Below are positions 12,621 through 48,421 of a stretch of DNA of 64,000 bases, one piece after another; position 1 is the first letter of the stretch; the number at the start of each line of letters is the position of its first letter. Source of the stretch: Chiloscyllium plagiosum (Eukaryota); contig NC_057756.1 of assembly GCF_004010195.1 (NCBI RefSeq), forward strand, positions 8,034,676 to 8,098,675, written 5' to 3'. A program made the position numbers and the translations under genes. The notes under the pieces were generated by a model. That model was not told where the DNA came from. It ran no database searches and worked only from the letters and a program-made list of their open reading frames with translations.

Positions 12621-13342
12621 ACACATCACCCTATCTGTCCATCTATGTTAAGGAGCACTTTGACGCAGAAAGGGTGGAAGATATTTGGAATTCTCTTCCA
12701 CAGATAGTGGTGGATATTGGATCAGTAGTTTGTTTTACATCTGAGAGAGATATTTTCTTTGTGAAGCAAAGTTATCAAGGGACTGGGGCCAAATGCCAAA
12801 GATGTGCGATGTTAAGTTGCCGATCAGCCGTGATCTCTTTAGATACCAGAACAGGGATGAGCGGCCGAATGGGCTACATCTGTTCCTATGCTTCATACGT
12901 GTGGATGGAACAAGGAAATGTGCAGTGTCAGAGTGAAGAGCGGAATGTCATTGAAACTCATTCATTCTGTGCACCATGAACATTGCGCGCTGTATTCCTA
13001 CACATGGTCACTAAATTCATAGTGTTGGAGAATCAAAGTTCATATCTTAGCAGGGAAAACTTCAGCAGCAGAGTGAAATACACCTGCTTATGTCCTCAGA
13101 TTCAGTGTAAACTGCACAGAAACCAGTAACATCAGAATGGAATGCACAGAAAGGACCATGGTTAATACATCGCTGCAAAACTGTAAGCGAAACCCTTCCT
13201 ATAAGAGCACAGTATTGGAGTTTGTTCCCAACAGATATTTAATTACGGAAATATCCTCGACATTGTAATGTTTACTTTGTATTCAGCAAGTTATGACTTT
13301 AACTGAGTGCTGTTTGTTCACATGAATGTGATGAATAACAAT

Positions 13343-13389
13343 GCTCAGGGGATAACCATGTCGGTGCAGAGCTGTCCCCTGTATATAAG
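13343..13389 (+). promoter_or_regulatory. Putative core promoter of receptor A: O/E-like site (GCTCAGGGGA, 13343-13352) and TATA box (TATATAAG, 13382-13389)
   Basis: The word GTATATAAGA precedes exon 1 of both receptor A and receptor B at similar spacing. The O/E match here is imperfect. Confidence 0.5.
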
Positions 13390-13467
13390 AACCCACCATA
13401 AACCCTTGAATTAGAGAGTGTGTCAGCGCATTGGGCTCTTGGAACACAGAAGCTGCTTTTCACAGAA

Positions 13468-13537
13468 ATGGGATATTTAGTCATCTTTTATATACAGGCT
13501 ATTTACTTCCCTGTGTGTGCGGCTGTTGGAATCACTG
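13468..13537 (+). CDS. Receptor A coding exon 1 (MGYLVIFYIQAIYFPVCAAVGIT + G), N-terminus and TM1 of a GPR139-like class A GPCR
   Basis: ATG at 13468 is followed by 23 codons plus 1 nt and a GTAAGT donor at 13538. The phase-1 join to the acceptor at 17935 gives ...VGITV-NLVAIVIL, with the TM1 Asn in place. TATATAAG lies about 80 nt upstream. Confidence 0.85.
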
Positions 13538-14439
13538 GTAAGTCGTTATTACAACGGTCAATGTTTTGCTGCTGTACTTAATATTATTTCAGACTGTTTT
13601 GTGTTTTTTAATTGTTTGTGGAATCTCCTCAGTTTCTGTCTTTGCAAGAGACTGAAGTACAGCTTTGTTTACACAGAGGTCGATAAACATATGGAATGGG
13701 TGCCAGAGGAAGTGGCTGAGGCAGTTACATTAACAACATTTAAAATGATTTTGAACAAATACATGGGAGAGGAAAGGTTGGGAAGGATATGGGTCAAGTG
13801 CTGGGAAATGGGGTTAGCGTGCATGGACGTTTTGGTCAGCGTGGACCAATTTGGGCCACAGGGCCTGTCTCTGTGCTGGAGGCCTCCGTGACACAATAAC
13901 TGTCTCACATTTGTAATGGTTATTGTTGACCTGATCCTGGAACAGTTATTTACTGGATTATTCTCTGTTCTGGATGTAGTGGAATCAGGTCGTTGTTCCA
14001 AGAGGAGGAACCAGACCATCAAAAGCTGTTGAATCTTCAGACTATAATCTGGCCTCATTCATGACCATTCTTGCCCCCATCTCCATCTTGATTTCATGTT
14101 CTTGTCTTCAGTCAGAGCTGACCTTTATTCTACCATTAACACCTATACTGAACCAATAGTCTTTTTTTCCTTCACTACTCATTTGCTGTTTGTATTGTGA
14201 CAACTTGGATGTCCATTTTTGGGACATTTCATCAGTGTGCACCACAGCTGCTGGAATTATAAATGAGTCTGTGTATCTGTCATCTATAAATGGCAGTGGT
14301 GATGTTGGTGTATCATTTATTGAACAACGGCATCATCGAGCATTGCACTTATTCCTGCCCACACGGGAGGATTTTCCACTCTTCTGAGTTGTCTGTAGAG
14401 GAGACAATCATATATGTCCAACCCATGATGGCAGCAGTG

Positions 14440-14790
14440 TCATAGAATCTCTGCAGAGTAAAAACAGGCCAGTCAGCCCAACAAGTCCACATCGACTTTC
14501 AAAACAGCCTCCATACAGACTTACCCTCCTGCCCTATCCCTGTTACATTGCATTTGCCACGGTTAATCTACCTAATTTACACGTCGCTGAGCACTACGCA
14601 CAATTTAGCATGGCAAATCCACCGAACCTGCATATCTTTACACTGTGGGGGGTAGCCTTGTACCTAGAGGAACCTACTAGACTCGGGGAGAATATGCAAA
14701 CCACACACAGACCATCGCCTGAGGCTGGAATTGAGCCCAGGCCCCTGGTACTGAGACAGCAGTGCTAACCACTGAGCCATCATGCCAACC
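14440..14790 (-). mobile_element. HE1-like SINE, diverged
   Basis: Same layout with many substitutions. Confidence 0.7.
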
Positions 14791-14860
14791 CCAGATTCAA
14801 ACCAAAATTGCTGTGGCCACAACGCAGAGTACAAGCTAATAGACTGTGTACAATCACAGC
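14791..14860 (-). pseudogene. tRNA-His(GTG) pseudogene in the receptor A intron
   Basis: The minus strand reads GCTGTGATTGTA...TACTCTGCGTTGTGGCCACAGCAATTTTGGTTTGAATCTGG, which matches the vertebrate tRNA-His core TACTCTGCGTTGTGGCCGCAGCAA. The D arm is damaged and the 3' acceptor strand is missing. Confidence 0.75.
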
Positions 14861-15131
14861 ATCACGCACAAAAGGGTCGCTGAACAATTGGAGTGTTGAG
14901 TGATGTGTAGAAACATTCTGATATTCACAGAGGCTGTACCTTTGAACAAACTGACGCCAAGAATGTAATTAATGAACACAGAGCTAGTGAACAGATAAAA
15001 ATGCAGCAGATTAACAATGCCTTGAATTTGTACAGAGACAGCAGGAAGCAATTAATGACAGTGCCAAAAAGATATAGTAAGGAGCAACAGTGAAATAGTC
15101 ATGAAAGGGGAGGTTTAAATAAACAAACAGC

Positions 15132-15433
15132 GGGGTGGCACAGTGGCACAGTGGTTAGCACTGCCACCTCACAGCGCCAGAGACCTGGGTTCAATTCCCA
15201 TCTCGGGAAACTGTCTGTGTGGAGTTTGCACATTCTCCCCGTGTCTGCGTGGGTTTCCTCCGGATGCTCCGGTTTCCTCCCAAAGTCCAGAGATGTGCTG
15301 GTTAGGTGAATTGGCCATGCTAAATTGCCCGTAGTGTTAGGTGTGGTGGAATTGTTCAGGATGGGTTGCTCTTTGGAGGGTCAGTATGGACTTGTTGGGC
15401 CGAAGGGCCTGTTTCCACACTGTAAGTAATCTA
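15132..15433 (+). mobile_element. HE1-like SINE
   Basis: GGTGGCACAGTGGTTAGCAC head, GGTTCAATTCC B box, V-domain and tail. Confidence 0.85.
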
Positions 15434-15727
15434 AATTTAAAAAGATGCAAGGCCTGAGAGAGTTCTAACTGTATTACAAATGAGACAGAGTGTTTATCGC
15501 ATGGAAACATCATTTGGGAATTCTGAATTTAAAGTAGCAGTAAATAGATTTGTAGTCTCTGGTCTGAGAAGATTATTTTCTTTAAATGTCAGAAGTTCAC
15601 TTGGAAAATTGAAATACATACTTTATTTCCAGCAGCATTAAGAGTTAGGCTGAGTGCCTTGCAAGACACAATGGAGTTAATTTTCAGAGTATTTACTATG
15701 TTGATTTTTCTGACTTTGGAATTTGCC

Positions 15728-15930
15728 AGCTCAGTTGGCTGGATACCTGGTTTGTGATGCAACGTGATGCAGGCAACATGAGATCAACCCCTGCACTGGC
15801 TGAGGTTACTATGAAGGATTCTTCTTACCTCTCCCTTTGCCTGTGGTGTAAACCACCATCAGTCATCTCCCTCTCATGAGAGAGCAGCCCCATGATCTGT
15901 TTGGACTGTGGTGACGTTACTTTATTTTGA
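15728..15930 (+). mobile_element. Third SINE-like family (partial copies at 18835-18980 + and 60490-60620 -)
   Basis: Shared GCTGAGGTTAC.ATGAAGGA..AAACCAC..CTCTC..GAGAGAGCAGCC, with an A-box-like GCTCAGTTGG head. Confidence 0.55.
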
Positions 15931-16688
15931 CAGGCAGAAACAAAAATCAAATTATTGGGGCCTGTAGTAGTTTGATTTCAGCAGTATACAATTTGGGTCC
16001 AGAAGCACAGTTTCATCTGAGAGGAAAATAAATTTGTTGACTTGTAAAATCTCCAAATTTTGAGTTTGTCAGAGTAGATTTCAGAACTGAAAATGAATCT
16101 GGGATCCCAGAACTGGAAAACAAATCTCCAGACCAACTGTAAAAAGTCACTTTCATAAGAAACTTAAGATTGAAGTCAAACATCGCTGGGATTGAGTATT
16201 GTTAAGGATATTGCAAGGAAATGGATCGAAACATTCTTTTTTGCTGTTTGTTTTGGCATAGAGATGTTTGCTCCTTTCCTGTAATGTTATTGTGATAAAG
16301 AATGCTACAATCTCAACAACAAACTTTCTGTAACTGAGCACCACTAAGAAAAACTGCAGAAATAAATCTTGTGATCTATCAAGTCAGGTTTCCCTTTCAG
16401 ATCTGATATGTACAGTATTGCCATCAGTAAAATCATGGCCAAAAGAAATTGTGACACTTTCAGTATAATTATAATTAAGGGAAAATGCAAAGGTGATAGA
16501 ACGAAAAGTTTTGCAAACTTTAAGAGATTTATTGTCTAAGGGGACTATTTTTCATTATCAGGAGCTGAGTATGCTTTGGTGAGTTTTCTTTAATAAATTA
16601 TGAGATTTTCTACTTTAAAATCCATGTATTTAACAAAAATTTGATTATTTAATTAGTATCTTTAACTTAAATTTAAAAAGTCTGTGAA

Positions 16689-16982
16689 GTGCGGCATGGT
16701 GGCTCAGTGATTACACCTGCTGCCTCACAGCAACAGCGTCCCAGGTTCGATTCCAGCCTCGGGTGACTGTCTGTGTGGAGTTTGCACATTCTCCCCGTGT
16801 CTGTGTGGGGTTCCTCCCTCAGTCCAAAAATGTGCGGGTCAGGTGAATTGGCCATGCTAAATTGCCCATAGTGTTAGGTGCATCATTCAGAGGGAAATGG
16901 GTCTGGGTAGGTTACTCTACAGAGGGTCGGTATGGATTTGTTGGGCCGAAGGGCCTGTTTCCACATTGTAGGGAATCTAATC
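16689..16982 (+). mobile_element. HE1-like SINE
   Basis: Head, V-domain and tail are present. Confidence 0.85.
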
Positions 16983-17599
16983 GGCAAATTGATCAAACAC
17001 TGATGTGTCCAGTAAGGTTTTCTGCCGTCCTAGTCATCTCAATCAAAGTTGGGTTGTATTAGCCTACATTCTCTCAAAAATGGCTGATTCTCAGCCAAAC
17101 TTTCAAACTGAAATGAATCTTCTGTTGCTTAAGTTTGGATACTTTAACAAATCATCTACTCTTGCTTCCAGCAGTTTGACCAGATCTTTTTTCTTGTCTC
17201 CCTGACATTTGCAATCACTGGCTCAGTTTGGGATGCCTATTGCAACACTGAAACCTCAAACTCACTTCTATTTTATCACCTATTTTCTTTTGTTTTGTTT
17301 TTACTCAGGTTCTGGATACTTCATTATCCCAGAGCAACAAAACGTTTGTGATTCCCAAAGTCCCCAAGTCATCTGCAGCATCATTATAGAGTTTAAATAG
17401 ATGTTATATCAGCAGATTCCCATTCTATAAAGGTCATGACCCCTTTTCATGTGGCACTTTCCCTCAACACTTTTAGTGAATCCAGTGCAGACTTGATTCA
17501 ATTTTTCTCCTGATTTGTCAATGAATTATTCATAATTTTTTTTAACATTTCTTTGTGACAAAGAGTGGTACAGGTCAATGAATATCTTTTCACTAAACA

Positions 17600-17815
17600 G
17601 AAAAACCAAGAAATGTGGATGCTGAAAATCAGAAACAAAATCAGAAAGTGCTAGAAAAACTCAGTAGGTCTGGCAGCATCTGTGGAGAGAAAGCAGACTA
17701 ATGTTTCAAGTCTGTTGTGAAGAAGGGTCACTGGACCAAAATGTCATACCGTTTTCTCCCCACAAATTATGCCAGATGTGCTACGTCTTTCCAGCAATTC
17801 CTGATTTTGTTTTTT
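17600..17815. mobile_element. Short fold-back element made of two inverted Penelope-type termini
   Basis: Arms at about 17633-17696 and 17749-17813 are imperfect reverse complements and resemble the TGCTGGAAAA..CAGCAGGTC.GGCAGCATC termini found elsewhere. Confidence 0.55.
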
Positions 17816-17934
17816 GAATATGTTTTCACTATTTGATGAGGCAACAATGCTAAAGGTCTCATGCTTGATCTTGTCAAACTGCTGAATTTATTCCAAATCC
17901 AGACTTGAATTTATTGGCTTTATCTCTTTTCCAG

Positions 17935-18587
17935 TTAACCTGGTTGCAATTGTCATCCTGAGTCAAGGAAGATGTGGTCTCTCTAAATGTATTACTCACT
18001 ATCTGGTGGGAATGGCAATGGCTGATCTCCTGGTTGTTATCTTTGATGTCATATTGAACTGGACTATTCCAATGTATTTTGGAGAAACATTCCTAGCTAT
18101 TACTCCAGTATGTAGCCTCATACTCACCCTAATGTTTGCAACCACTGGTGCCTCTGTTTGGCTCACAGTCGCTTTCACCTTTGATCGATTTCTTGTGCTT
18201 AACGCTCTGACAGTGAGATCTATTTTAGTGACCGGTCGAGTCCGCACCACACTGCGAGGTATCAGCAGTGGAGAAAATCACAAGGACCCAGAGATGGAGA
18301 ACCGGAGAAAATCCATCATTTTACTCTTCAGTTTATCTGCCAATTTCATACTGTTATGGATGATATATGTTGTGTTTAACCTTTATCGGAGAATTGCTCC
18401 TGATCATTATGATTCCTCCTACACAGATACAATATACAGCATTGAATCCATGGGAGAAATGCTGCAGATTCTCAGCACCTGCACCAACACATGTATTTAC
18501 GTGGTAACTCAGACTAAATTCAGAGAGGAACTGAGGAATGCACTGAAATACCCATTCAAATTCATTCTCAAACCAGCTAAATCATAG
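17935..18587 (+). CDS. Receptor A coding exon 2; spliced product 240 aa, lacking ICL2, TM4, ECL2 and most of TM5 (5-TM variant or young pseudogene)
   Basis: A pyrimidine-rich TTTTCCAG acceptor is in frame with ORF 18006-18587. Motifs: GRCGLSKCITHYL, MADLLVV, AFTFDRF, DPEMENRRKSIILL, TCTNTCIY. DRF is joined directly to LVLN, whereas paralog B has 82 residues between them. Confidence 0.85.
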
Positions 18588-20359: not shown

Positions 20360-21750
20360 ATAAGGAGGGTTCCAGGAGGTTTTAGGAAGTTTACGAAATG
20401 TGGAGTGATTCAGGGGCTGCAGCATATTAGAGCGAAATGAGCATAGTAAAGGCTTGAGTATGTTACAAAGCCAGGGAGGGGAGCAGGGGCTGGAGGAGTT
20501 TACTGAGATAAGGAGGGATGCAGGGGCTGGAGGAGGTTACAGAGATAGGAAGGGGAGCAGCAGCTGGAGGAGGTTACAGAGAGAGGGAAGAGTGTAGGGG
20601 CTGAAAGATGTTACAGAGATGGGGAGAGGACAGGGGCTGGAGAAGGTTGCAGAGATGGGGGGGGTCAAGGGGCTGTAGGAGGTTACAGAGATAGGGAGGA
20701 NNNNNNNNNNNNNNNNNNNNNNNNNNNNNNNNNNNNNNNNNNNNNNNNNNNNNNNNNNNNNNNNNNNNNNNNNNNNNNNNNNNNNNNNNNNNNNNNNNNN
20801 NNNNNNNNNNNNNNNNNNNNNNNNNNNNNNNNNNNNNNNNNNNNNNNNNNNNNNNNNNNNNNNNNNNNNNNNNNNNNNNNNNNNNNNNNNNNNNNNNNNN
20901 NNNNNNNNNNNNNNNNNNNNNNNNNNNNNNNNNNNNNNNNNNNNNNNNNNNNNNNNNNNNNNNNNNNNNNNNNNNNNNNNNNNNNNNNNNNNNNNNNNNN
21001 NNNNNNNNNNNNNNNNNNNNNNNNNNNNNNNNNNNNNNNNNNNNNNNNNNNNNNNNNNNNNNNNNNNNNNNNNNNNNNNNNNNNNNNNNNNNNNNNNNNN
21101 NNNNNNNNNNNNNNNNNNNNNNNNNNNNNNNNNNNNNNNNNNNNNNNNNNNNNNNNNNNNNNNNNNNNNNNNNNNNNNNNNNNNNNNNNNNNNNNNNNNN
21201 NNNNNNNNNNNNNNNNNNNNNNNNNNNNNNNNNNNNNNNNNNNNNNNNNNNNNNNNNNNNNNNNNNNNNNNNNNNNNNNNNNNNNNNNNNNNNNNNNNNN
21301 NNNNNNNNNNNNNNNNNNNNNNNNNNNNNNNNNNNNNNNNNNNNNNNNNNNNNNNNNNNNNNNNNNNNNNNNNNNNNNNNNNNNNNNNNNNNNNNNNNNN
21401 NNNNNNNNNNNNNNNNNNNNNNNNNNNNNNNNNNNNNNNNNNNNNNNNNNNNNNNNNNNNNNNAGATAGGGAGGGTGTAGGGGTTTGAGGGGGTTACTGT
21501 GATAGGGGGGGATGTGGGGCTGGAGGAGGTTACAGGGATAGGGAAGGATGTAGTGGCTGGAGGAGATTACAGAGATCGGGACAGGTGTAGGGGCTTGAGG
21601 AGGTTACAGGGGTAGGTAGGCTTTGGAGGAGGACACAGAATAGGGAGAGGTTTCGGGGCTGGAGGTGGTTACAGGGATAGGGAGGTGTGTAGGTGCTGGA
21701 GGAGGTTCCAGAGATCTGGAGAGATCTAGGGACTGGAGGAGGTTTCTGAG
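20360..21750 (+). repeat. G-rich minisatellite, unit about 32 bp (GGGGCTGGAGGAGGTTACAGAGATAGGGAGG..), spanning an N gap
   Basis: Tandem degenerate units lie on both sides of gap 20701-21463. Confidence 0.85.
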
Positions 21751-22919
21751 ATTGTGAGGGGTGTGGCTGATTGCGAACGTTGTAGGATTAGCAATATGAC
21801 TACTCCATGAAGTGATGTGAAGTGGGAAATGAGGCACTACAGGGAGATATGAGAGTGGGACCTGCTGGACCATCAGACAGAGTTTGGATTCCTAAGTCAC
21901 CCCAAGATTCTGGAAAACCCACAGGGAAATTGATTGAGGGCCACCCTAGAGCAGCACTTATTTCTTCCACATTGGGTGGAGTAAGAATTGAGCTGAATGA
22001 CCCTGGATCTCACAGAGACTGGACAATGGGACGCCATCAGGTTTGGAGATAAGAAAGCAACAGGATGAGAGATGCAGAAAGTGGAGAGGAGACAGCCTTT
22101 AATCACTCTCACATTAATCACATGTAATGACACACATCGGGATTGAGATCACAGGTTAGGCCATTCATAACGCACCCAGACCCACTAGACTGTGAATACA
22201 AACTGCAGGGAACCCCACCCCAACCCCTTAAAATCTTCCTCCCATCAGCTGGGGCTTTGAAAGATCCTGAATGAACATTTGGCACACCGTTCCAGCCTGT
22301 GTTCACTGTGTGGGTGGAAACCTCAGTGAATGCCACAGGCAAGGCCCATGTTTACTCTCCAACATTCCCCTTGCCCCTAAGAAAGTGATGGTCCTCCTCT
22401 TGTCTTGAACCAGCTGCTTTCCCTCCTGGTAAAGGAGACTGTCTCCGTGTGGAATAACATCCAGGATCTGAACCAGCAGTGAAGGTTCCACGACTGAATA
22501 GCCCATTAACTATCTCAGTCTTTTTCCCCAACAAAACACGGGAGCGATCAGATGGAGGTGGGGTTGAAGACAGGAAACATTGACCAGAGAGATGGCATAT
22601 ATTTTCTGGGAGGGTATCCAGTGGATACTAGCCCAAGGTAACTTCAAGTTATGGCAAAATGTGATCACTCTTCCTCTCTCTGCCCCTCTCAATCTCGCCT
22701 CCCATCTTTCCGAAAACCTTCCTCACCAATCCCCAGGGGAAAAGGATGCTGGCTCCCAGTGAAGGCCCTTGGCACCATGCCCCCACACTGTTCACCAGTG
22801 GTGGACCATTCCTGTGCTCACCTGGCACTTCCCTCCCCTCCCCGTGCCCAGCGCTGGGGCGCCCTGCCACATCTCCCAGAGTCTCAAGTTGCACATCTGG
22901 AAACTGCCATTACCCACAA

Positions 22920-24238: not shown

Positions 24239-24480
24239 GCTCAAAAACTGCATGAATTCATGTAGAACTCTGAGCTCAAAAACTGCATGCATTCGTGTAG
24301 AACTCTGAGCTCAAAAACTGCATGCATTCGTGTAGAACTCTGAGCTCAAAAACTGCATGCATTCGTGTAGAACTCTGAGCTCAAAAACTGCATGCATTCG
24401 TGTAGAACTCTGAGCTCAAAAACTGCATGCATTCGTGTAGAACTCTGAGCTCAAAAACTGCATGAATTTATGTAAAACTC
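24239..24480 (+). repeat. 35-bp tandem array, about 7 copies (GCTCAAAAACTGCATGCATTCGTGTAGAACTCTGA)
   Basis: Units start at 24239, 24274, 24309, 24344, 24379, 24414 and 24449. The five inner units are identical and there are no spacers. Confidence 0.95.
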
Positions 24481-28750: not shown

Positions 28751-29009
28751 ATATAGTGCATTAACCTCCGCCATTTCTGCCACCTACGGTGAGATCAGTA
28801 TGAAATTAACACATCACTACTCTCAGTATGAGAGGTGATCTCATTGAGACATCATGTTTTCTTTAGGGTCTTGGGAGGGTAACTGCTTGAGAGGATGTTT
28901 CCCACATGGGAGTGTCTCAAATCAGAAAGAGCAGCAGAATTGTGGGGTGCTGATTTCGGATTGTAATGAGAAAGCATTCCTTCTCTCAGAGTGCTATGAG
29001 TCTTTGGAA

Positions 29010-29320
29010 CTGCTTACACAGAGAGATCTGTGATAATGTCAAGGTGAAATGAATTCTGGCATCCAAGTGACTATTACATGATGCAGTGCAGTTTCAGCTC
29101 CTCCAACTCCATTACAGGATGAGCAGGAGATAGCCATCTGGGAAAGGCAAGCATCAGCGTACACCTTGGACTGAATTAATCTCGGGAGTGCATCCCATGG
29201 GATGAAGAGAGTCTGGTGTAGTTCTGTAGGCAATTTGCTAAAAGGACTGGAGCTAAATTTGTCCTGGGAATTGAGATCAAAACAAATGCAGTTTCATAAA
29301 GTATGAAGAGGTATATAAGA
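29010..29320 (+). repeat. Near-identical upstream duplicate of the receptor B promoter, ending just after the TATA box
   Basis: Direct repeat of 30255-30563 with few differences. ORF-track entries 29039-29233 and 30282-30476 are almost identical. Confidence 0.92.
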
Positions 29321-29649
29321 CAACTCGGCACTGCTCTCTTGACCTGTCCTACTTTTCCATTTCCTTCCCAACTATCCGCTCTCCCCTCCCCACCAATACA
29401 TTAAAATGACCTCTCGCCTGTCGCCTTCCCATCATCCTTCGCCCCAGCCCCTCCAATCCTCCTATTTATCTATCTGCCCCCTACTCCACACTCCAACATT
29501 CCTGATGAAGTGCTTATCCTCAAAGTGTAAATTCTCCTGCTCCTCGGATGCTGTCTGACCTGCTGTGCTTTTCCAGAGCCACCCTTTGACTCTGATTCTC
29601 TCACATCTTCAGTCCTCAGTTTCTTTTTTTAACTCAATTCATGTGTTCC

Positions 29650-30240
29650 ACACCAATGTCAGGAATGGAGTTTCAGTCACTCAGTGCCTGAATAGCGCCT
29701 TTCGATAAAATCTGGAGTCTGCTCCACTTCTCCTCTCCACACTATACTGCGTGGGAGTTGTATCCTGCATTTCACTGGGTCCTTCATGAAGGATGGTGGT
29801 CTCACGTGGTGCTCGCACTCAGGTCAAAGGTCACCAGCACATGGATGACATCCTTGCCCTCTGCTCAAATCCATGGTTTGTCACAGGTCATTCAGCATTT
29901 GTGACCTTTTTAAATAGGTTTGGCATCCTGTGCATATTGACACAAAAATAATGCCTGTTCTCTGGACTCTCGGCTGACTGATCCTCACACCCCTTCACTG
30001 TGAGATTGGTCAGAGTAAAATCAATAGATGATAGATGGAGTGCCCGAGACTTGTATGAAGAGCTGGAAGAAAATGTCACTGATTCTTAACAGCAACAGGA
30101 CATGTGCAGAGACCCACAATCTGCAAAGACATGATGTGCTAACTCCTAGTCAAAGGGTGAAAACGTACCCTACATCACACTCATTCTGATGGCCAACATT
30201 GTGTCCGTCCGCATCCGGGTATCTGGCGAACCTCAGTACA
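29650..30240 (+). mobile_element. Highly decayed L1/Tx1-like RT fragment between the two promoter copies
   Basis: HMDDILALCSNP (YxDD-like), SICDLF and PFTVR, with many stops. Confidence 0.45.
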
Positions 30241-30254
30241 CAAACATCAAGTTT

Positions 30255-30563
30255 CTGCTTACAGAGAGATCTGTGATAATGTCAAGGTGAAATGAATTCT
30301 GGCATCCAAGTGACTATTACATGATGCAGTGCAGTTTCAGCTCCTCCAACTCCATTACAGGATGAGCAGGAGATAGCCATCTGGGAATGGCAAGCATCAG
30401 CGTACACCTTGGAATGAATTAATCTCGGGACTGGATCCCATGGGATGAAGAGAGTCTGGTGTAGTTCTGTAGGCAATTTGCTAAAAGGACTGGAGCTAAA
30501 TTTGTCCTGGGAATTGTGATCAAAACAAATGCAGTTTCATAAAGTATGAAGAGGTATATAAGA
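30255..30563 (+). promoter_or_regulatory. Putative promoter of receptor B: homeodomain-type AATTAAT (30417-30423), O/E palindrome TCCCATGGGA (30436-30445), TATATAAG (30555-30562)
   Basis: Motifs were read directly. The TATA box starts 91 nt before the ATG. Homologous blocks occur upstream of pseudogenes C and D. Confidence 0.6.
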
Positions 30564-30645
30564 TTCAGAACAGTCAGCAGTTACCGGTGAATTGGAGCCT
30601 TTAATTCCAACAGGGATCAGCCATCAGCTTTCTTAGAAAACGACA

Positions 30646-30727
30646 ATGTCAAACGTGGAGAGGATAAGAGTTCTATTTGCCACTACATACATATTCCGTT
30701 GTATCATTGCACCCCTCGGAATTCTTG
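30646..30727 (+). CDS. Receptor B coding exon 1 (MSNVERIRVLFATTYIFRCIIAPLGIL + G)
   Basis: ATG at 30646, 27 codons plus 1 nt, then a GTGAGT donor at 30728. The phase-1 join to 36042 gives LGILG-NLVTVIIL, the same intron position and phase as in receptor A. TATA box at 30555. Confidence 0.85.
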
Positions 30728-31397
30728 GTGAGTTCTCATACATTTAAAATTGAGCCTCACTGTGTACAGGAAGAACACAGCGGTGTTTGTAGATTCATTA
30801 AAGGTGTTCTCCCCATGTTATTTATTGCATCTTTCTTTCATAGCTCCAGCAAATTAACTTCCAATGACAATTCACGTTTTATTACTGCTCACATTGCTAG
30901 TATCTCCAGTTCATTAAGTGAGAGTGTTCTGAGAGCAATATTGTTGTAATGTCGGATATGGACTGGAGAGTCACTTCCTACAAGTGAAGGTAAAGAAATC
31001 GTAAGAGCACTCACAATAACGTTTTAACAGAGGGTGGAACGCATGTGGAATGACCTGCCCGCAGAAGTGATTGAGGCTGTTTCATTAACAACATTGAAAA
31101 GGCATTTGGACGCATACATGGATAGGAAATGGATAGGATGTAGAAGGATATGGGCCATGTGGTTAGCCTGGATAGACATTTTGGTCAGCATGGGCCAGTT
31201 TGGGCCAAAGGGCCTTTCTCCGTAATGTAGGACTCTATGACTCTATAACACACAACTTATAACAGGGAAAATAAATGTGCCATTTGTCACATGGTGCACC
31301 ACGGAGAGCTAAAACTCTACAGTGTTATACTTGGTGAATGGTCAGAATTAGAGTATAATTCTCAAGCAAATTATTTTGAGAATTAGCTGGATACAAA

Positions 31398-34300
31398 TGT
31401 TATGAAGTTGAAGGTGTGTATTGTACTTTTAAGAGAGAGTGAACGCTGTCCTGAACTGAGAGATTACAAGCAATTGTGTGTATGACTAGATGGCACTGCC
31501 AAACTGCACTGGAAATTCAAAAATATCTAACATTTGACCATGAAAGAGATACCTGAGTTTTGGTTGCTGCTTTGACCACATTTCCAACTTAACCCATCAG
31601 TTTAAATTATGCCCCAGTATATAAAACCTTATCATGTCTGTATTTATTGATTTTCTAATATCAAACCAATGAGACAATGCGATGTTGGGGGTATAAAAAT
31701 GCAGACAATTTGAACTTTGGAGAGAGAGCAACTGCCACCAAGACAGAAACATCTGGAGATGTAACAACTTGCTCTCCAAGAAATTAGGAAACACTCTCAA
31801 TCAAAAATACCTTTTAGTATGAAACATATTTGCAATAAATAGAAAGACGATGACCCAGAGACATCTTCAGCTGGAAGAGAGAAGACAGAAGAATACAGTG
31901 ACTGTGTCATTTTGATATTAAATTGATATAATTTTTATAAGTGTCTTATTGGAACAGCATACTGTTGCAGAGTTGGAGGCCGATGGGGGTGAGTAACTCA
32001 GAGAGTGGGGGGCTTAAGGTTGCGAATAGTTGTTATTTAAAGTTCACTTTTAGAGTTGAAAAATAATTTGATTTCTTGAAATTGTGGAATTTGGGAGTTC
32101 TCTATCACTCGGATTTTAAAAGATTACGAGATGAGGCGAGATTTCCTGGGTGTTGGGTTCAATTAACCGAGGGATTCACCTCCGTGTCATAACAGTTTGG
32201 AGGATCAGGTTGAACATCTGGATTGATTTGAACAGATTTAGACAGATCCAGTCTGAGACTTGGACAGATTTGAACAGATTTGAGATACGAAATGTCCCAT
32301 AAGATTTAAACATTTGCGCATCAGAGCCCTAGATCTTTAATTAAAATGTAGGTGAAAACTTTGTTTAATTTTAGTTACTTGTGTTTGGTTCAAATAAAAG
32401 TGAGGGAAGTGGCTCTTAAGATTGCTCAAGAGGGTGGAGGTTCTGGGATTTGAAGTTGCTTCCCAAATTTGCCAAGAAAGTTTAGAAAGACAGGGGAAGG
32501 ACATAGAATTAGTAAATAGGTTAGCAGTGGGTTTAACCTGGGACAAAAGGAAAGCTGAAATTGTGATGGAGTTGTTCAAGCACTTACGTGTATCAGAGAA
32601 ACAGACACGTGCAAATCGTACATGTTGCAGTTCATAAAATTGTGACAGCAGATGCGTTATTGTGGATTTAAAGAGAGTGTAGGTAAATTCCAATGTCATT
32701 TATATGTGCACAAATTAGTCTGAAAGGTTGACTTAGATTAATGTCCTATGTATTTCATTGTAATGGAATTAACATTAGCAAAACAGAAGCCGACTTTTCA
32801 TTATGATGGTCCATTATTTTCTTAAAGGGGGAGGTGTTATGAATTTGAAGGTGTGTACTGTACCTTTAAGAGAGAGTGAATGTGGTTATGAACTGAGAGA
32901 TTACAAGCACCTGTGTATAAGACTAGATGGCAGTCCCAGAGCATACTGGAAAATAGAAAATATGTAACATTTGGCTGTGAAATATATACCTGAGTTTTGG
33001 ATGCTATTGGACAATAATTCAAATTTAATCAATCAGTTTAAATTATACCACCAGATTCTAAAACAAATTGAATTTATTGTTTTGCCAACCTCAAAGCAAT
33101 GAGATGATCTGATGTGTGGTGCGGGGTATATATAAAAGTGTGGACTGTTTGAAAATGGGAGAGAGAGCAACTGCCATCGAGATAAGAATGCCTGGAGGTC
33201 TAACATTTTGCTCTCCAAGAAATCAGAAAACACTCTGTCTAAGGTACCTTTTAGTATGAAACATACTCGCAGTAAATAGAAAGAAGATAACCGAGAGAGA
33301 TACTAGGCCGCAAGACAAAAGACAGTGGCTGTGCGGTTTTGAAATTAAATTGATGCAATTTTTATGTGTCTTATTAAAACAGCATATTGTTACAGAGTTG
33401 GAGGCTGATAGGGGTGAGCAATGAAGAGAATGGTGGGGGACTTATAGTTGTGAATAATTGTTATTTAAAATTGAAACTGTCTGCATTTAAAGTTCACTTT
33501 TAGAGTTGAATAATAAATTGATTTCATTTTCTTGAAATTGTGGAATTTGGGAGTTCTCTATCACTCAGATTTTAACAGATTACGAGGCAAGATGAGCTCT
33601 CCAGGGTGTTTGGGTTGAATTAACAAAGAGGTTCACCACTGTGTCATAACAGTTTGGGGCTCCGGTCAAATATTTGGATAAATTTGGACAGGTTGAGACA
33701 GATCCTGTCTGAGATTTGAACAGGTTTGAGATATGAAATGTCCCAGAAGATTTAAACATTTGTGAATTGGTGTCCTCAAATAAAATCTTCAAATAAAATG
33801 TAGGTTAAAAATTGTTTAATTTCAGTTGCTTGTGTTTGGTTAAAATAAAAGTGAGGGAAATGGCTCTTAAGATTGCTCAAGAGGTTCTGGGGTTTGAGGA
33901 CGCTTCCCAAATTTGCCAAGAAAGTTAAGAAAGACAGAGGAAAGACATACTTTCAGAATTAGGAAATAGGTTAGCATTGGGTTTAACCCGGGACAAAAGG
34001 AAAGCTGAAATTGTCATGGAGTTGTTCAAGCACTTATGTGTATCAGAGAAACAGACACGTGCAAATCGTACATGTTACAGTTCATAAAATTGTGACAGCA
34101 GATGCATTATTGTGTATTTACAGAGAGTGTAGATAATTTCCAATGTGCAGAAATTAATCTGAAAGATATAACTTAGACGAATGACCAATGTATTTCATTG
34201 TAGTGGAACTAAAGTTAGAAAAACAATCATCTTTTCATTTTTTTATTCTGAACAGGGGAGGTGTTATGAAGTTGAAGGTGTGTCCTGAACCTTTAAGAGA

Positions 34301-35061
34301 GTGTGACTGTTGTTATGAACTGAGAGATTGCAAGCAACTGTGTACATGACTAGATGGCAGTCCCAGAGCACACTAGAAAATTGAATATATGTAACATTTG
34401 GCTGTGAAAGACACCCCTGAGTTTTGGTTGCTGTTTGGACAATAATTCAAATTTAAGCAATCAGTTTAAATTATACTACCAGGTTCTAAAATCCAATTGA
34501 ATTTATTGTTTTGCCAATGTCGAAGCAATGAGATGAGACGATGTTTGAGGGGGGCTGTATAAAAGTGAGGACAGTTTGAAAATGGGAGAGAGAGCAACTG
34601 CCATCCAGACAGGAACACCTGGAGATTGAACGTCATGCTCTCCAAGAAATTGGGAAACCCTCTCTATCAAAGGTAACTTTTCATATGAAACATGCTCACA
34701 CTAAAAAGAGGGAAGATGACTCGCAAAGATTATCAGCCAGAAGAGGGAAGACAGAAGAAGACAGCGGCTGTGTGGTTTTGAAATTCAGTTGATGTAATTT
34801 TAATAAGTGTCTTATTGGAACAACATACTGTTAAAGAGTTGGAGGCCATTTGGGGTAAGCAGTTAAGAGAAAGGGGGCTTTTTGTTGTGAATAGTTGTTG
34901 TTTACTGTTCACTCATAGAGTTAAAAAAAGATGCTATTTTCTTAAAATAGTGGAATTTGGAAGTTCTCTGTCACTCATATTTTAACAGATTACGAGGCAA
35001 GATGAGCTCTCCAGGGTGTCTGGGTTTAAGTAACAGAGGTGTTCACCTCCCTGTCATCACA
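31398..35061 (+). mobile_element. Tandem non-autonomous LTR element: LTR 31398-32194, internal, LTR 32835-33651, internal, LTR 34262-35061
   Basis: Three TGTTATG...CA repeats of about 800 bp. PBS-like TGGGGCTCC at 33655 and PPT AAAGGGGGAGG at 32824-32834. The internal 610-640 bp contains only the gag start ATGGCTCTTAAG. Confidence 0.88.
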
Positions 35062-36041
35062 TATCTCAGTGTGATGCTTCTTTGAAAGGAGCATCGTTGA
35101 TCAGTTTGTAACTCTGAAGGAATTGATGTTTAATAATGAGTGATTTATGAGTTACTTGGCCATTCTACAGCATCACTGACAGGACTCATACTCCCCAACT
35201 CTTCCTCTGTGTTTTACAATTGGGTTTCCATTGCATGAGAAATTGATCACATTAAGAACTGACACGGGTCAGACATTGAGTGCTTGCATCCTGGAGTAAC
35301 ACATTCTCACATTTCAAATAACATTTCTTTTTTTATAAATGAGACAAATTGATCAAACTTAAATGGTGAAAGTAAGGACTGCAGATGCTGGAGATTAGAG
35401 TCAAGATTAGGATGGTGCTGGAAAAGCACAGCAGGTCAGGCAGCACCCAAGGAGCAGGAAAATCGAAGTTTCGGGCATAAGCCATTCATCAGGAATGAGG
35501 CTGGGAGCCTCGGGGTGGAGAGATAAATGGGAAGGAGGTGGGGCTGGGGGAAGGTAGCTGATAGAGCAATAGGTCAGAGAGGAGGGTGGAGTGGATAGGT
35601 TTATTTCCCCACAGATTACCTTTAAATGTGTCAAAGCCACAAAGAAATGCACTTGTGCTTTATTTAATTGCAATTTTTATTATCATCATCAAATTGCTCG
35701 TTCTGCCCTAACAATTGTCCCTTCGTATTTCCTAAATGCATTCTTTGTAATTGTGCTGATTAAAGAAGGAACTCAGCTCTCCAAAATGAACAAAGAGCCT
35801 CCTAAATGCTGAAAGTGATCAATGCTCTTTTATCTTATTTGTGATGGGAAATAACAAAGACTCCCACTCTCTTTACACTCTAATTTGGTGCAGAGAACTG
35901 GAAAAATTAGTACCTAGAAAAATTAACACATCACTACTCTCTTTCAATGATGCTTGCCTAATATTTGTTATATTGGCATACTGTAATTATTATTCAGATA
36001 ATAACCTGTCCATATGTTTTTTTGATGTTTGTTTCTCCAAG

Positions 36042-36931
36042 GAAATTTAGTGACGGTTATCATTCTTGCCCGAGGAAGATGTGGGCTGAACAAATGTATC
36101 ACCAGCTATCTTGTAGCAATGGCAGCAACAGATTTACTTGTCATCTTCTTTAGTGTGGTAATGTCATTCATCTTTGATGCATTATACACCTACATGCCCC
36201 ACACTGTCCCTTGTATCCTTCAAGAAGTGATGACATATGTGACCCTTGATTGTTCTGTCTGGTTAACAGTCGCTTTCACTTTTGATCGCTTTGTTTCTAT
36301 TTGTTGCCAGCAGTTCAAACTCAAATATTCCACTGTCACAACTGCAAGGGTGGTGATAGGAACCGTGTGTATATTGAGTTTGGTGACTAACATCCCCTAC
36401 TACTTCACTTATGAATCCTATGAATTATATATGCCTGTTGGTTGTACACAAAGTCAAGAAGTTTACACTCTTCCTGGGTGGCTGGTATTCTTCTGGTTCC
36501 ACAATATTTCAACCCCACTGCTGGCTTTCTGTCTGATTTTGGTGCTTAATGTGCTGACCATCAGACATGTTTTAATATCGAGTAGAGCCCGGAGGAAGCT
36601 CCGTGGTCACGGCAAGGCTGAGAAACATGAAGATCCAGAGATGGAGAGTCGGAGGAAATCAATGATTTTACTTTTCTGTTTGTCAGGGAACTTTGTCCTT
36701 TTGTGGCTGACAGAACTGATTATGAATATGTACTTCAATATCAACAACTCAATTATTGTGACAAGTTGGGCTGACCCAGTAAATGTGGCTGGAAATGCAG
36801 GGACCATGTTGAAACTTCTCAGTTCCTGCACAAACACGTTTATCTATGCTGTGACTCAAAGTAGGATCCGACAGGAAATAAAAAACGGAGTCAAGTATCC
36901 ATTTACAGTAATTCTGAAGCTGATTAAGTAA
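36042..36931 (+). CDS. Receptor B coding exon 2; apparently intact 7-TM GPR139/GPR142-like class A GPCR (spliced 323 aa)
   Basis: Acceptor TTTCTCCAAG, then an open frame to TAA at 36931. TM1 GN, TM2 AATDLL, TM3 Cys and AFTFDRF, TM4 NIP, ECL2 Cys, TM6 RRKSMILL..LLWL, TM7 SCTNTFIY, and helix 8 are all present. Confidence 0.93.
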
Positions 36932-43304: not shown

Positions 43305-43915
43305 ATGAATGCGGGTGTCAGTGGCTGAGACAACAATTATTGCTTGTCCCTAATTGCCCCTTTGAGAAGGTAATGGTAACTTGCCTTCTTGGACCGTTAC
43401 AGACCACGTGTTGTAGGTGAAGCTACAATAGCTTTAGAGAGGGAGAACCAGGTTTTTGACCCAGCAACAATGAAGGAACATTGCAATATTTCCACATCAG
43501 GATAGTGAGTGGTTTGGGAAGAAGTTTGCAGGGGTGACGTTTCCACATATCTGCTGCCCATGTTTGTGGGTTTCTCAGGTGCTGTCTGAGGGGCTTTGGT
43601 GAATTTCAGCAGTACATCTTGTAGATAGTGAACACTGCTGCTGCTGAATGTTGGTGGTGTAGGGAGTGGATGTTTGTGTATGGGGTGCCGATCAAGCGTA
43701 CTGCTTTGTCCTGGATGATGGCCAGCTTCTTGAGTGTTGTCGCAGCTGTGGGGAGTATGCCCAGGCAATTGGGGAAAATTCTATCATACTAATGATTTGT
43801 GCCTGGTAGATGGTGGGCAGGCTTTTAAGAGTCAGAAATTGAATTGTCGCTATAGTTTTCTGAGGTTCTGACCTGCTGTTGTAGCCATTATATTTTAACA
43901 GTGAATCCAATCCCA
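43305..43915 (-). mobile_element. LINE 3' end of a further family (related pieces at 6700-6990, 8330-8650 and 51300-51440)
   Basis: FLT.KSLPTIYQAQI.SM.EFSPIAW resembles a LINE ORF2 C-terminus, and the tail is shared among the copies. Confidence 0.6.
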
Positions 43916-43989
43916 GCTGCTCCAGAGGTGTGCCATTACACATCTGCACAGGTTGGTTTAAAAGAGAATGTAGTAATGACCTGTGCTAT

Positions 43990-44470
43990 CGAAATGATTC
44001 ATTGCACTGTGCAGAGCAAAGTATCCTTTCAGCTCCTTCGAACCTATTACAGACCCAGCAAGACAGGCTGATGTGGCATTGACAAACTTGACTGTATACC
44101 TTAAACTGAATTAATCTCAGGAAAGGAGTTAAAGAGGTGGGTGATGGTGTGATCAATTGGGTCAGCAGCTCTTCATGCAATTTGCTCAAAGGATTGGAAC
44201 TACAATTAACTGGGGAGGGCTGCTGTGGCACAATGGGACTGTCCCAGTGGCTCTGAGGTGGGAGGGTCCAACTGCTCCAGAGGCAGATCATACCAACTCT
44301 GAACAGGTTCATCACATTGCAATGGGATTTCATAAAACAGAGATGGACAGAGTATATTTAAGCTGTATCCATTTATCATCAAATGGTATTTGAATGTGTG
44401 AATGTACATTAGAAATGCAACTGTAATCTCCTTACTTGGTTGTATCATTTACCAACCTTAGTATCAAACA
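43990..44470 (+). promoter_or_regulatory. Diverged promoter and exon-1 homolog upstream of pseudogene C (inverted copy at about 50370-51220 upstream of D)
   Basis: Shares the blocks TTTCAGCTCCT, GAATTAATCTC, GCAATTTGCTnAAAGGAnTGGA, TTTCATAAA, a TATA-like TATATTTAAG and GTTGTATCATT, in the same order as 30335-30710. Confidence 0.55.
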
Positions 44471-44820
44471 ATGCGCGACCTGCCTGGCCTGCAGTTTTTC
44501 CTGGTTGGTTGGTTTTGTTTTGGCTGCACTGATTAATGCAGGGCTGCAGCTTTACACAGATGATCAAGCTTCAGGAAATGCTCAAAGCTGTCAAAGTTCA
44601 TTGCTGTTGTTAGTGATTGTGGATCAACTCCCTTCCCACTCCTTGGAACAGAGCATACTCCAGAGAGCTGTGAAAAGGAGCAACTGGTAAAGGAAATACA
44701 ATCCTGTTTTAATCCATCACTCCTTTCTTCAACTAAGCTAGTCTTGTATCTGTGATATTGACAAGGTATTGTTATGTGTCTGGACACAAATACATTCTAT
44801 TTTCATGTTTATTGTTAAAG

Positions 44821-45238
44821 GTAATTCATTGTCAATTATCATTCTTCCCTGAGGAAGATGTGGGCTCAATAAACGTACCACCAGCTATCTCATTGCAATG
44901 GCAGCAGCAGATCTAGTGGTCATCTTCTTCAGTGTGATAATGTCATTCATCTTCACTGTTGTGTACACCTACATGCCCCACATTGTCCCTTGTACTCTTC
45001 AGGAAGCGATGCTGAATGTGACCCAAGACTGTTCTGCACGGTTAAGAGTCGCTTTCACTTTTGATCGCTTTGTTTCTGTTTGTTCCCAGCAGTTCAAACT
45101 TAAATATTCCACTGTTAAAAATGCAAGGATGGTGATAGGTAGAAGTTAACATTGAGTTTAGCAACTAACATCACATATCACTTCTCCTTTGAATCCTATG
45201 AATCATACATACCTGTTGGTTGTGTACAAAGTCCAGAA
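44821..45238 (+). pseudogene. Receptor C: GPR139-like pseudogene (exon 2 remnant)
   Basis: Acceptor TTGTTAAAG, premature TGA at 44850-44852 (CGA in paralogs), frame disruption near 45140. Homology stops in ECL2 at about 45238, and 45330-45680 resembles the 3' flank of receptor B. Confidence 0.9.
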
Positions 45239-45685
45239 TTCCATAGATTCACCACTCTCTGGCTGAAGAAGCTTTTCCTTATCTCCGTTCTAAAAGTCTT
45301 CACTTTACTCTCAGGCTCATAGAGTTTGCATTGTGCTTTTTATTCATTTAGCTGTGTTCTCTCATTGCCTGTATGTCACTTAAATAAGGCAAAACCATTG
45401 ATGATTCACAGCTATTTGTACATACATTATTTTCTTTTTATTTATTCTGTCCCTCTGGTCAAAAAATTACCCATTAATATTATTTTTTTTGAAAGTGCTA
45501 TCATTTCTTTTGTTTTTGGATAGTTATTATCATACAGTACAAACTGTTCTTCCACAGTTATGCTCCACCATTACTTCAGATCCATATTATCTCACCTTCC
45601 TGCCATTTATCCTTCTCATTGTTAATGTAAAGTATTTATGTTTCCATGTGGTAAGCTTCTCTTCCCTTTTTTACGTTCTAATAAG

Positions 45686-46950
45686 GTGATGAGTGAGGGA
45701 GAGGAATGTTCCTCCTGCATGATGTTTGAGGTGAGGGATGCCGTTATTGTCCCATCCAAGTGCATCTGCAGGAAGTGCACCCAAGTCTCGCTCCTTCAAG
45801 ACTGTGTTAGGGAACTGGAGCAGGACCTGGATGAACTTTGGAACATTCAGGAGGCAGAGGCTGTGATAGATAAGAGTTACAGGGAAGCAGTTACTCCTCG
45901 GCACGAAGAAAGCTGGGTGACTGTTCGAAGGGGGAATAGCAATCAGTGCAGGGATTCCCTGTGGTTGTTCCCCTGGAAGACAAGTATACCATGATGGATA
46001 CTGTTGGGGGGGGGGGGGAACTTACAGGTGCATGCAATGGCATGCTGGTCTCTGGCACAGAGTCTGTTCCTGTTGCACAGAATGGAAGGAAGGAAAGAAG
46101 GAGGTGTTAGTCACTGGAGACTCAATAGTTAGAGGGTCAGATCGAAGGTTTGTTAGGAACAAATAACACTCACGGTTGGTGTGTTGCCGCCCAGGTGCCA
46201 GGGTCGGTGATGTTTTTTAGATTAGATTACTTTAGATTACTTTACAGTGTGGAAACAGGCCCTTCGACCCAATGAGTCCACACCGACCCGCCGATGCGCA
46301 AACCACACATACCCCTACATTTACCCCTTACCTAACACTACAGACAATGTAGCATGGCCAATTCACCTAACCTGCACATCTTTGGACTGTGGGAGGAAAC
46401 CGGAACACCCGGAGGAAACCCACGCAGACAAGTGGAGAATGTGCAAACTCCACACAGTCAGTCGCCCGGGTCTCTGGCGCTGTGAGGCAGCAGTGCTAAC
46501 CACCGTGCCACCGTGCCACTCCCCATGTCTCGGATCATGTCTCTGGGGTCGTGAAGGGAGAGGGTGACCAGCCCCAAGTCGTGATTCATGTGGGTAACAA
46601 CATAGGTAGAAAGAGGGAAAGGAATGTAAGCCAGGATTTCAGGATCTGGGGTGGAAGCTGAGAGCTAAAACAAACAGAGTTGTTATCTCCGGTTTGTTAC
46701 CCATGCCACGTGATAGCGAGGCAAGGAATAGGGAGAGATATCAGCTGAACACATGGCTGCAGGGATGGTGCAGGAGGGAGGGTTTCAGGTACATGGATAA
46801 TTGGAGCTCATTCTGGGGAAGGTGGGACCTCTACAAACAGGATGGTCTTCACTTGAACCAGAGGTTACTAATACCCTGGGTGGGAAATTTGCTGGTGCTA
46901 TTTGGGTAGGTTTAAACTAGCTCAGTAGGGGGATGGAAACTGAGGTGTAG
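45686..46950 (+). mobile_element. CR1 LINE ORF1 (Cys-rich N-terminus plus SGNH esterase-like domain)
   Basis: CSSCMMFEV..CRKC, GDSIVRG, LNTWLQGWCRREGFRYMDNW..DGLHLN. Confidence 0.85.
46219..46518 (-). mobile_element. HE1-like SINE nested in a CR1 ORF1 fragment
   Basis: V-domain and tail are present, and CR1 ORF1 homology continues on both sides. Confidence 0.85.
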
Positions 46951-46955
46951 TTGAG

Positions 46956-48421
46956 AGGGTGGCCCCAATTTACCACGATATTGGAACTGGTGATATTGAA
47001 GGACATCATCATAATCAGTTCTAGGTAAAAACCACCATTCAACCACACCGCCCTGTGGCCCAACATTTCAACTCTCCCTCCCACTCAGCTGAGGACATGG
47101 AGGTCCTGGGCCTCCTTCACCGCCGCTCCCTCACCACCCGACGCCTGGAGGAAGGACGCCTCATCTTCTGGCTTGGAACACTTCAACCCCAGAGCATCAA
47201 TGTGGACTTCAACAGTTTCCTCATTTCCCCTTCCCCCACCTCACCCTAGTTCCAAACTTCCAGCTCAGCATTGTCCCCANNNNNNNNNNNNNNNNNNNNN
47301 NNNNNNNNNNNNNNNNNNNNNNNNNNNNNNNNNNNNNNNNNNNNNNNNNNNNNNNNNNNNNNNNNNNNNNNNNNNNNNNNNNNNNNNNNNNNNNNNNNNN
47401 NNNNNNNNNNNNNNNNNNNNNNNNNNNNNNNNNNNNNNNNNNNNNNNNNNNNNNNNNNNNNNNNNNNNNNNNNNNNNNNNNNNNNNNNNNNNNNNNNNNN
47501 NNNNNNNNNNNNNNNNNNNNNNNNNNNNNNNNNNNNNNNNNNNNNNNNNNNNNNNNNNNNNNNNNNNNNNNNNNNNNNNNNNNNNNNNNNNNNNNNNNNN
47601 NNNNNNNAGCTAATCTCTCCACGCTTCAGACTCTCTGCCTTTATTCCTGATGAAGAGCTTTTGCCCAAAATGTCGATTTTGCTGCTCCTCGGATACTGCC
47701 TGAACTGCTGTGCTCTTCCAGCACCACTAATCCAGAATCATAATCAGTTCTGTCAGCCACAAAAGGATGAAGATCCCCCACCGACAGCAAAGTAAAATCA
47801 TTGATTTCCTCCGACTCTCCATCTCTGGATTTCCATGTTTCTCAGCCTTGCCGTGACCACGGAGCTTCCTCCGGGCTCTACTCGATATTAAAACATGTCT
47901 GATGGTCAGCACATTAAGCACCAAAATCAGACAGAAAGCCAGCAGTGGGGTTGAAATATTGTGAAACCAGAAGAATGCCAGCCACCCAGGAAGAGTTTAA
48001 CCCTCGGGACTTTGTACACAACCAACAGGTATGTATGATTCATAGGATTCAAAGGAGAAGTAGTAGGGTATATTAGTTGCTAAACTCAACATACACACAG
48101 TATTTATCACCACCCTCACAGTTGTAGTGTTGGAATATTTGAGTTTGAATTGCTGGCAACAAATAGAAACAAAGTGATCAAAAGTGAAAGTGACTGTAAA
48201 CCAGATGGAACAGCCTAGGGCCACACATATCATCACCTCCCGGACAGTGCAAGGGACAGTGTGGGGCATCAAGGTGTACAATGCAGCAAAGATGAACAAC
48301 ATTACCACACTGAAGAAGACCACCAGGAGATCTGATGCTGCCATCGTTATGATATAGCTCATGATACATTTATTGAGCCCACATCTCCCTCGGGCAAGAA
48401 TGATAATTGTCAATAAATTAC
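46956..48421 (-). pseudogene. Receptor D: GPR139-like pseudogene (exon 2), interrupted and 3'-truncated
   Basis: The exon starts at 48421. DRF is changed to DHF, and there is an in-frame TAA at 47997-47999 (TAC in B). A Penelope-like insertion at 47023-47736 follows TM6. The frame resumes as MSFNITSSNIVVNWGHP to about 46956, and TM7 is absent. Confidence 0.9.
47023..47736 (+). mobile_element. Penelope-like 3' fragment inserted in receptor D with a 15-bp TSD
   Basis: VAQHFNSPSHS..RRLEEGRLIF.LGTLQPQSINVDFNSF. ATCATAATCAGTTCT occurs at 47008-47022 and 47737-47751. Confidence 0.88.

Follow-up and report, generated by a model that had tools for sequence, protein, structure and literature searches.

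The segment from 30255 to 30645 of the window (the whole 64-kb stretch of DNA that was analysed) is a real promoter, situated directly upstream of an intact G protein-coupled receptor (GPCR) gene, here called receptor B. An EBF site in this promoter is plausible, and expression in olfactory neurons would have about one chance in three. The reading that we prefer, with a probability of roughly 0.45, is that of an ordinary TATA promoter with an EBF word that is specific to receptor B and uninformative on tissue. The initial annotation had described an olfactory-receptor-like promoter; the proximal TATA promoter of an intact receptor, with a perfect EBF core, is borne out by the analysis, but the gene is not an olfactory receptor (OR). 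The features of the promoter, the gene and its relatives in the window are as follows.

13240-13390, + strand: promoter of receptor A, with TAATTA at 13240-13245, an EBF-like site at 13343-13352 and a TATA box at 13382
13468-18587, + strand: receptor A, 240 aa, exon 1 at 13468-13537 and exon 2 at 17935-18587
29010-29320, + strand: promoter duplicate of receptor B, 311 bp, 97.7% identical to 30255-30563
29321-30254, no strand: spacer between the promoter copies, 934 bp, partly interspersed-repeat fragments
30255-30645, + strand: proximal promoter and putative 5' UTR of receptor B, 43% GC, with a predicted transcription start
30416-30426, + strand: GAATTAATCTC block with TAAT cores on both strands, invariant in receptor B, the duplicate and pseudogenes C and D
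30436-30445, no strand: perfect EBF/Olf-1 core TCCCATGGGA, inside a 12-bp perfect palindrome (30435-30446)
30503-30512, - strand: second, degenerate EBF-like site with two mismatches, 52 nt upstream of the TATA box
30555-30563, + strand: TATA box TATATAAGA, 91 nt upstream of the receptor B ATG
30588-30597, + strand: 10-mer TGAATTRGAG near the expected start, common to receptor A (13407)
30646-30727, + strand: coding exon 1 of receptor B, 27 codons plus 1 nt, with a GT donor
30728-36041, + strand: intron of receptor B, 5.3 kb, with a repeat of about 1.4-kb period at 31398-35061
36042-36931, + strand: coding exon 2 of receptor B, GPR139-like class A GPCR
43960-45240, + strand: pseudogene C, promoter homolog 65% identical to that of B, exon 2 truncated and with a stop
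46950-51250, - strand: pseudogene D, promoter homolog 64% identical to that of B and 88% to that of C, exon 2 interrupted and with a stop

The TATA box is the best supported element of the promoter. The 9-mer TATATAAGA occurs three times on the two strands of the 64-kb window, at 13382, 29312 and 30555; it sits 86 nt before the ATG of receptor A and 91 nt before that of receptor B, and the third copy belongs to the promoter duplicate. This confinement to the promoters of A and B and the duplicate counts for the reading as an ordinary TATA promoter. The 10-mer TGAATTRGAG, which was spotted post hoc and occurs twice in the window (13407-13416 and 30588-30597), 25-33 nt past the TATA box, is a candidate core-promoter element of the family. 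The promoter has a GC content close to that of the window and a CpG observed/expected ratio of 0.23, with no CpG island. Mouse OR promoter regions have 36.4% GC (PMC3247239; here and below, papers are cited for the parts of their text that were accessible), and at 43% GC the AT-rich context of an OR-type promoter is not found upstream of receptor B.

Splicing of the two exons yields an open frame of 323 aa that encodes an intact class A GPCR, and the N-terminus of a zebra shark protein (P0001) is identical to exon 1 at 19 of 27 residues. Pfam assigned 7tm_1 alone, with no match to an olfactory receptor family at E <= 0.01, and GPR139 was the nearest solved structure in a PDB search (E 2.4e-18). 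A protein search returned 771 matches at E <= 1e-10 among 1526 candidates; the 120 best matches listed were all from 13 shark and ray species, and 117 of these 120 were labelled GPR139. A quick tree of 62 rows comprised B, C and D together with 59 of the 120 listed proteins, leaving out proteins of at least 400 aa and most of those beyond rank 60; in it, B, C, D and zebra shark P0001 formed a clade (support 99), which joined eight batoid proteins (support 100). Because of the Pfam assignment, the GPR139-type homologs and PDB match, and the placement in the tree, receptor B is not an OR: it is a member of an elasmobranch-expanded, GPR139-like family of seven-transmembrane class A receptors.

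This family is large and clustered and contains many pseudogenes. Its likeness to the class A orphan receptors GPR139 and GPR142 lies in the nearest solved structure and in the GPR139 labels of the listed homologs. However, GPR139 itself is a conserved, brain-expressed gene, whereas the elasmobranch family has many divergent copies per genome, and the name is therefore a label given automatically, which does not testify to orthology. The literature searched, which was mostly outside subscription and included the accessible text of PMC11979771, PMC10620051, PMC6504862, PMC12208981 and PMC8455134, contained no paper on the elasmobranch expansion or its expression; the 12 whale shark supplementary files searched, of 24, and one nurse shark file contained no GPR139/142 term. 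Among metagenome contigs, 137 pattern matches to related loci gave no confirmed case. A search of sequencing runs with exon 2 listed no RNA run, and two single-cell RNA runs (one sample, about 2% and 6% read) gave no reads on 29640-31010, a zero that does not bear on expression.

Several repeats lie in and around the gene. A 1.4-kb unit that includes TATA-like words is repeated about 2.5 times, in diverged copies (78%), at 31398-35061 in the intron of receptor B; the array looks like tandem LTR-type elements. An exact 22-bp string is common to 28803-28824, a junction of repeat fragments upstream of the promoter duplicate, and to 35920-35941 in the 3' part of the intron (E 9e-6 within the window), and is possibly a templated insertion. 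Between receptors A and B there are a 37-bp tandem array across an assembly gap (20451-21764) and a 35-bp array of seven near-identical copies (24239-24480).

The window offers three paralogs for comparison. Receptor A, which is more distant from receptor B than C and D are, has an open frame (17935-18587) from which an in-frame deletion has removed about 80 residues, from the end of TM3 up to that of TM5; its promoter and splice sites are intact. Upstream of the TATA boxes, the 160-nt stretches of A and B align no better than shuffles, 155 of 2000 of which scored as high. Pseudogenes C and D have no recognisable exon 1, and the promoter of C has an insertion upstream of a TATA-like word at 44353. 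In view of their stops, the lack of a recognisable exon 1 and the promoter insertion that they have in common, C and D were counted as one lineage. They form inverted, head-to-head-distal cassettes (C at 43738-45240, + strand; D at 48004-51440, - strand), with upstream repeat fragments as well as the promoter insertion in common.

Similarity of the B promoter to those of C and D was rejected as proof of constraint: B and D are identical at 151 of 236 promoter positions (64%) versus 69 of 77 fourfold-degenerate sites (90%), and the promoter as a whole therefore shows no sign of constraint. The sequence suggests that gene conversion in the coding region is the likely cause of this contrast. In TM5-TM6, D (47739-48422) and B (36041-36725) are nearly identical. 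Three other candidates were discarded, namely a transposable-element coding origin of the reverse-strand open reading frames upstream of C and D (no Pfam match), a homolog of exon 1 or of the B intron just after the TATA-like word of C (174 and 124 of 300 shuffles were as good), and a fifth receptor at 58026-58304 (one weak match, E 0.024, with unconvincing frames).

The elements on which the initial annotation was built, AATTAAT at 30417-30423, TCCCATGGGA at 30436-30445 after a gap of 12 nt, and TATATAAG from 30555, were all found in place. The perfect core TCCCATGGGA lies 119 nt upstream of the TATA box and thus about 150 nt or less from the predicted start, so that receptor B has an O/E site within the roughly 200 bp upstream of a start placed from its TATA box. 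TCCCATGGGA would probably bind EBF in vitro. In the window only receptor B and its promoter duplicate carry the perfect palindrome. The perfect pattern TCCCNNGGGA was found three times (two of them independent) versus 1.0 +/- 0.9 in 60 shuffles of the window. It appeared in 0.23% of 20000 shuffles of the 300 bp upstream of receptor B, or in about 0.2-0.5% per given promoter, and together with a TAAT core within 30 nt in 0.07% of 20000 shuffles, a rarity that assumes a motif chosen beforehand, whereas this one was picked after reading, in a family of many copies. The palindrome is thus uncommon for a pre-chosen promoter, and the figure of 0.23% counts against the preferred reading. With the O/E consensus for mouse OR promoters, TCCCYNGRGA (PMC3247239), the site of receptor B and that of receptor A have one mismatch each; of the 612 overlapping 200-bp tiles into which the window was cut, promoters included, 70 contain a site with at most one mismatch, and 18 contain one with TAAT within 30 nt.

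The comparison of paralogs was set beforehand as a test of whether the palindrome is shared, and it came out negative: the palindrome is present in one of the four genes of the window and is missing at the equivalent position in all three paralogs. The weaker O/E-like site that had been noted for receptor A at 13343-13352 does exist, at a position that is not that of the palindrome of B (-39 versus -119 from the TATA box). Sites with one mismatch occur in A, B and D, not in C, at non-equivalent positions; the four genes amount to three independent lineages only. Receptor A has its own one-mismatch O/E site and a perfect TAATTA at -142 from the TATA box, and these count against the preferred reading. 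As had been claimed, C and D keep GAATTAATCTC (at 44108, + strand, and 51092-51102, - strand) without the palindrome; D has its right arm, and its left arm differs at four consecutive bases. A single loss may account for the missing palindrome of C and D, both of them dead and of one lineage, and this point, too, counts against the preferred reading.

The Lhx2-type homeodomain consensus is TAATTR or TAATKR. The word AATTAAT does not match it and is in this sense non-canonical; it occurs 12 times in the window versus 13.4 +/- 4.1 times in shuffles, i.e., at chance level. By the same consensus, TAAT cores are present upstream of receptor B, TAATTR does not occur in 400 bp, and TAATKR comes no nearer than -203. 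The TAAT cores of B lie at -137 and -135 from the TATA box, and TAATTA of receptor A at -142. A 14-bp homeodomain block is the longest invariant run across the duplicate, C and D, with a permutation P of 0.014 when gap columns are included and 0.058 when they are not; this run counts against the preferred reading and for an olfactory-type one.

The conserved 11-mer GAATTAATCTC agrees in register with 9 of 11 bases of the Sfaktiria probe used in gel shift (EMSA) experiments on the Lhx2/Ebf composite of the Greek Island enhancers (Monahan et al. 2017, PMC5608512), and in the B/C/D block a pyrimidine and then a purine stretch likewise follow the homeodomain word. According to the accessible text, the Lhx2 site of the composite is followed at 1 nt by the Ebf site, an insertion of as little as 2 bp impairs the composite, and it marks enhancers rather than OR promoters. 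The pair of AATTAAT and TCCCATGGGA, with a spacing of 12 nt and not 1, does not have this geometry, and together with the non-canonical word this leaves the combined homeodomain and O/E grammar unsupported in the form that had been proposed. The B/C/D block departs further from the Greek Island composite: in register, its TAAT core has a different first base, it is located in a promoter, and its pseudogene copies fit best and that of receptor B worst. A pattern generalised from this one probe and the accessible text of the paper, TAATTR-N-YYYYNNRRRR, fits C and D with one mismatch, as do 10 places in the window, and fits the promoter duplicate with two, a level reached in 159 of 612 tiles; the copy of receptor B itself, a degenerate Ebf-like site in register, has more than two. 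The sole perfect match in the window, at 43351-43367, is repeat-derived, about 600 bp upstream of the promoter homolog of C, and probably due to chance.

It is possible, although we would not expect it, that chemosensory neurons, olfactory or other, read the promoter through EBF (O/E) and a LIM-homeodomain factor (Lhx2/9), in the manner of mouse OR and V1R genes. The unit at work may then be the homeodomain word abutting the degenerate EBF site, kept in B, C and D and reinforced in B by the perfect palindrome, and the GPR139-like receptors would be an unrecognised family of chemoreceptors. The in-register match to the Sfaktiria probe, the one-mismatch fit of C and D (shared with the 10 places in the window), the presence of both site types in receptor A, and the large, clustered and pseudogene-rich family are in line with this possibility, as is the nearly equal TATA distance of TAATTA in A and the TAAT cores in B; the points from receptor A and from the Sfaktiria match are weak ones. 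However, the composite pattern comes from a single probe and fits the duplicate and B poorly, the composite is an enhancer mark with little tolerance of insertions, and the EBF-like sites of A and B are differently placed. In addition, olfactory neurons of the catshark are microvillous, and none of eight OR genes was detected in them (PMC10116579, accessible text), so that the OR programme of ciliated neurons is an indirect model. Mouse OR promoters, a subset of which combine O/E, homeodomain and TATA elements (Young et al. 2011, PMC3247239), resemble that of receptor B in having an O/E core within 200 bp of the predicted start, a TAAT core and a TATA box. In contrast, receptor B is a GPR139-like GPCR with an intron inside its coding region, its promoter is not AT-rich, its homeodomain word is non-canonical, and the mouse grammar was defined by enrichment throughout the family, about 6-fold and in over 40% of promoters, whereas the perfect site is present here in one of four genes. 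A precedent is offered by the mouse V1R genes, a non-OR GPCR family of microvillous neurons, in which O/E-like sites near the starts mark all 39 mapped promoters tested (Michaloski et al. 2011, PMC3247230); a non-OR family can therefore carry such sites, but that grammar rests on 39 mapped promoters, and the present case on one gene with a predicted start.

Two other readings have to be weighed against that of an ordinary TATA promoter. B cells and many kinds of neurons employ EBF factors, and the site might function in non-olfactory, EBF-positive cells, namely in central neurons, where receptor B would keep the brain expression of GPR139, or, less likely, in B cells. We consider this unlikely. 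GPR139 is expressed mainly in the habenula, striatum and hypothalamus (PMC12208981), and receptor B, as part of an old subclade of shark and batoid proteins, could keep a conserved internal role; against this, the accessible literature that joins Gpr139, Ebf3 and the habenula amounts to single mentions in one paper. The block might also be a low-copy repeat and not a promoter, or its present form an assembly artefact, which would be very surprising. The promoter block occurs twice, 1.24 kb apart, as a 311-bp direct duplication within 29010-30563 around a 934-bp spacer that begins right after the first TATA box. The duplicate, which the initial annotation had not noted, has the homeodomain word at 29174, a 14-bp palindrome at 29191-29204 and the TATA box at 29312, and stops directly after it, with no exon downstream. 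A further copy, about 87% identical over 30302-30511, was found elsewhere, in contigs. The two neighbouring copies and this third one would suit a repeat or an artefact, as would the fact that no contig from two runs displayed the junction between spacer and second copy (at a low depth of 5-12, and contigs do not show absence). However, matches of the block in the window are confined to the duplicate and the upstream regions of C and D, Pfam matches nothing in the reverse-strand open reading frames that overlie the copies of C and D, and one contig of run X1 (30435-30975) extends from the palindrome through the TATA box and exon 1 into the intron with five differences.

Contigs of runs X1 and X3, from other individuals, differ by 1-2% from the window and have an intact palindrome, a divergence that is too small to show constraint, and the common letter at 30434 extends the palindrome to 14 bp. 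Contigs of both runs have the letters of the duplicate at 30414 and 30431; an X1 contig with the letter of the duplicate at 30517 continues into exon 1, and another X1 contig links the promoter block to the upstream flank of the duplicate. The X1 contigs thus fit a single-copy promoter, and therefore the 311-bp duplication may be polymorphic or an assembly feature; it may also be an insertion with a very long target duplication.

Under the preferred reading of an ordinary TATA promoter, TBP would bind TATATAAGA at 30555, and transcription would begin about 30 nt downstream. The gene structure predicts a two-exon mRNA that would be translated into the 323-aa receptor. The elements common to the paralogs would be the TATA box and perhaps a homeodomain site about 140 nt upstream of it, and the perfect EBF palindrome would be a feature of the B lineage only. 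It might have arisen in one step, as it has the right arm in common with D, and the reverse complement of this arm forms the left one. A single template switch in the B lineage would explain this, and so would a loss in the dead ancestor of C and D. The palindrome would then not be part of a family-wide grammar of the OR type, and alone it would neither determine nor betray where the gene is expressed. Besides the distribution of the TATA 9-mer, this reading draws on the absence of the palindrome at the equivalent position in A, C and D, on upstream sequences of A and B that align no better than shuffles, on the identity of B and D being lower in the promoter than at fourfold-degenerate sites, on the 70 of 612 tiles with a comparable site, and on the GC content of 43%.

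Published descriptions credit sharks with very few chemoreceptors and with few GPCRs of this kind (PMC10116579, PMC8455134, accessible text), and yet hundreds of related GPR139-like proteins are recorded across sharks and rays. If their promoters were driven by EBF and homeodomain factors in neurons of the nose, sharks would have a far larger chemoreceptor repertoire than is assumed, and recruitment of the OR-type regulatory code would have happened more than once. That the expanded receptors of sharks and rays are a further olfactory or chemosensory family, brought independently under the control of EBF and LIM-homeodomain factors with a composite-like site in the promoter, is doubtful, but, if true, the shark nose could no longer be viewed as relying on a few dozen V2Rs. 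The O/E plus homeodomain grammar is known from OR and V1R genes, and its presence before a GPR139-like shark gene would be new. A single promoter with a single good site is not evidence for such control in neurons of the nose, but a cheap lead towards testing it. The GPR139-like family is thus the more interesting object, and the promoter of receptor B a weak but testable hint.
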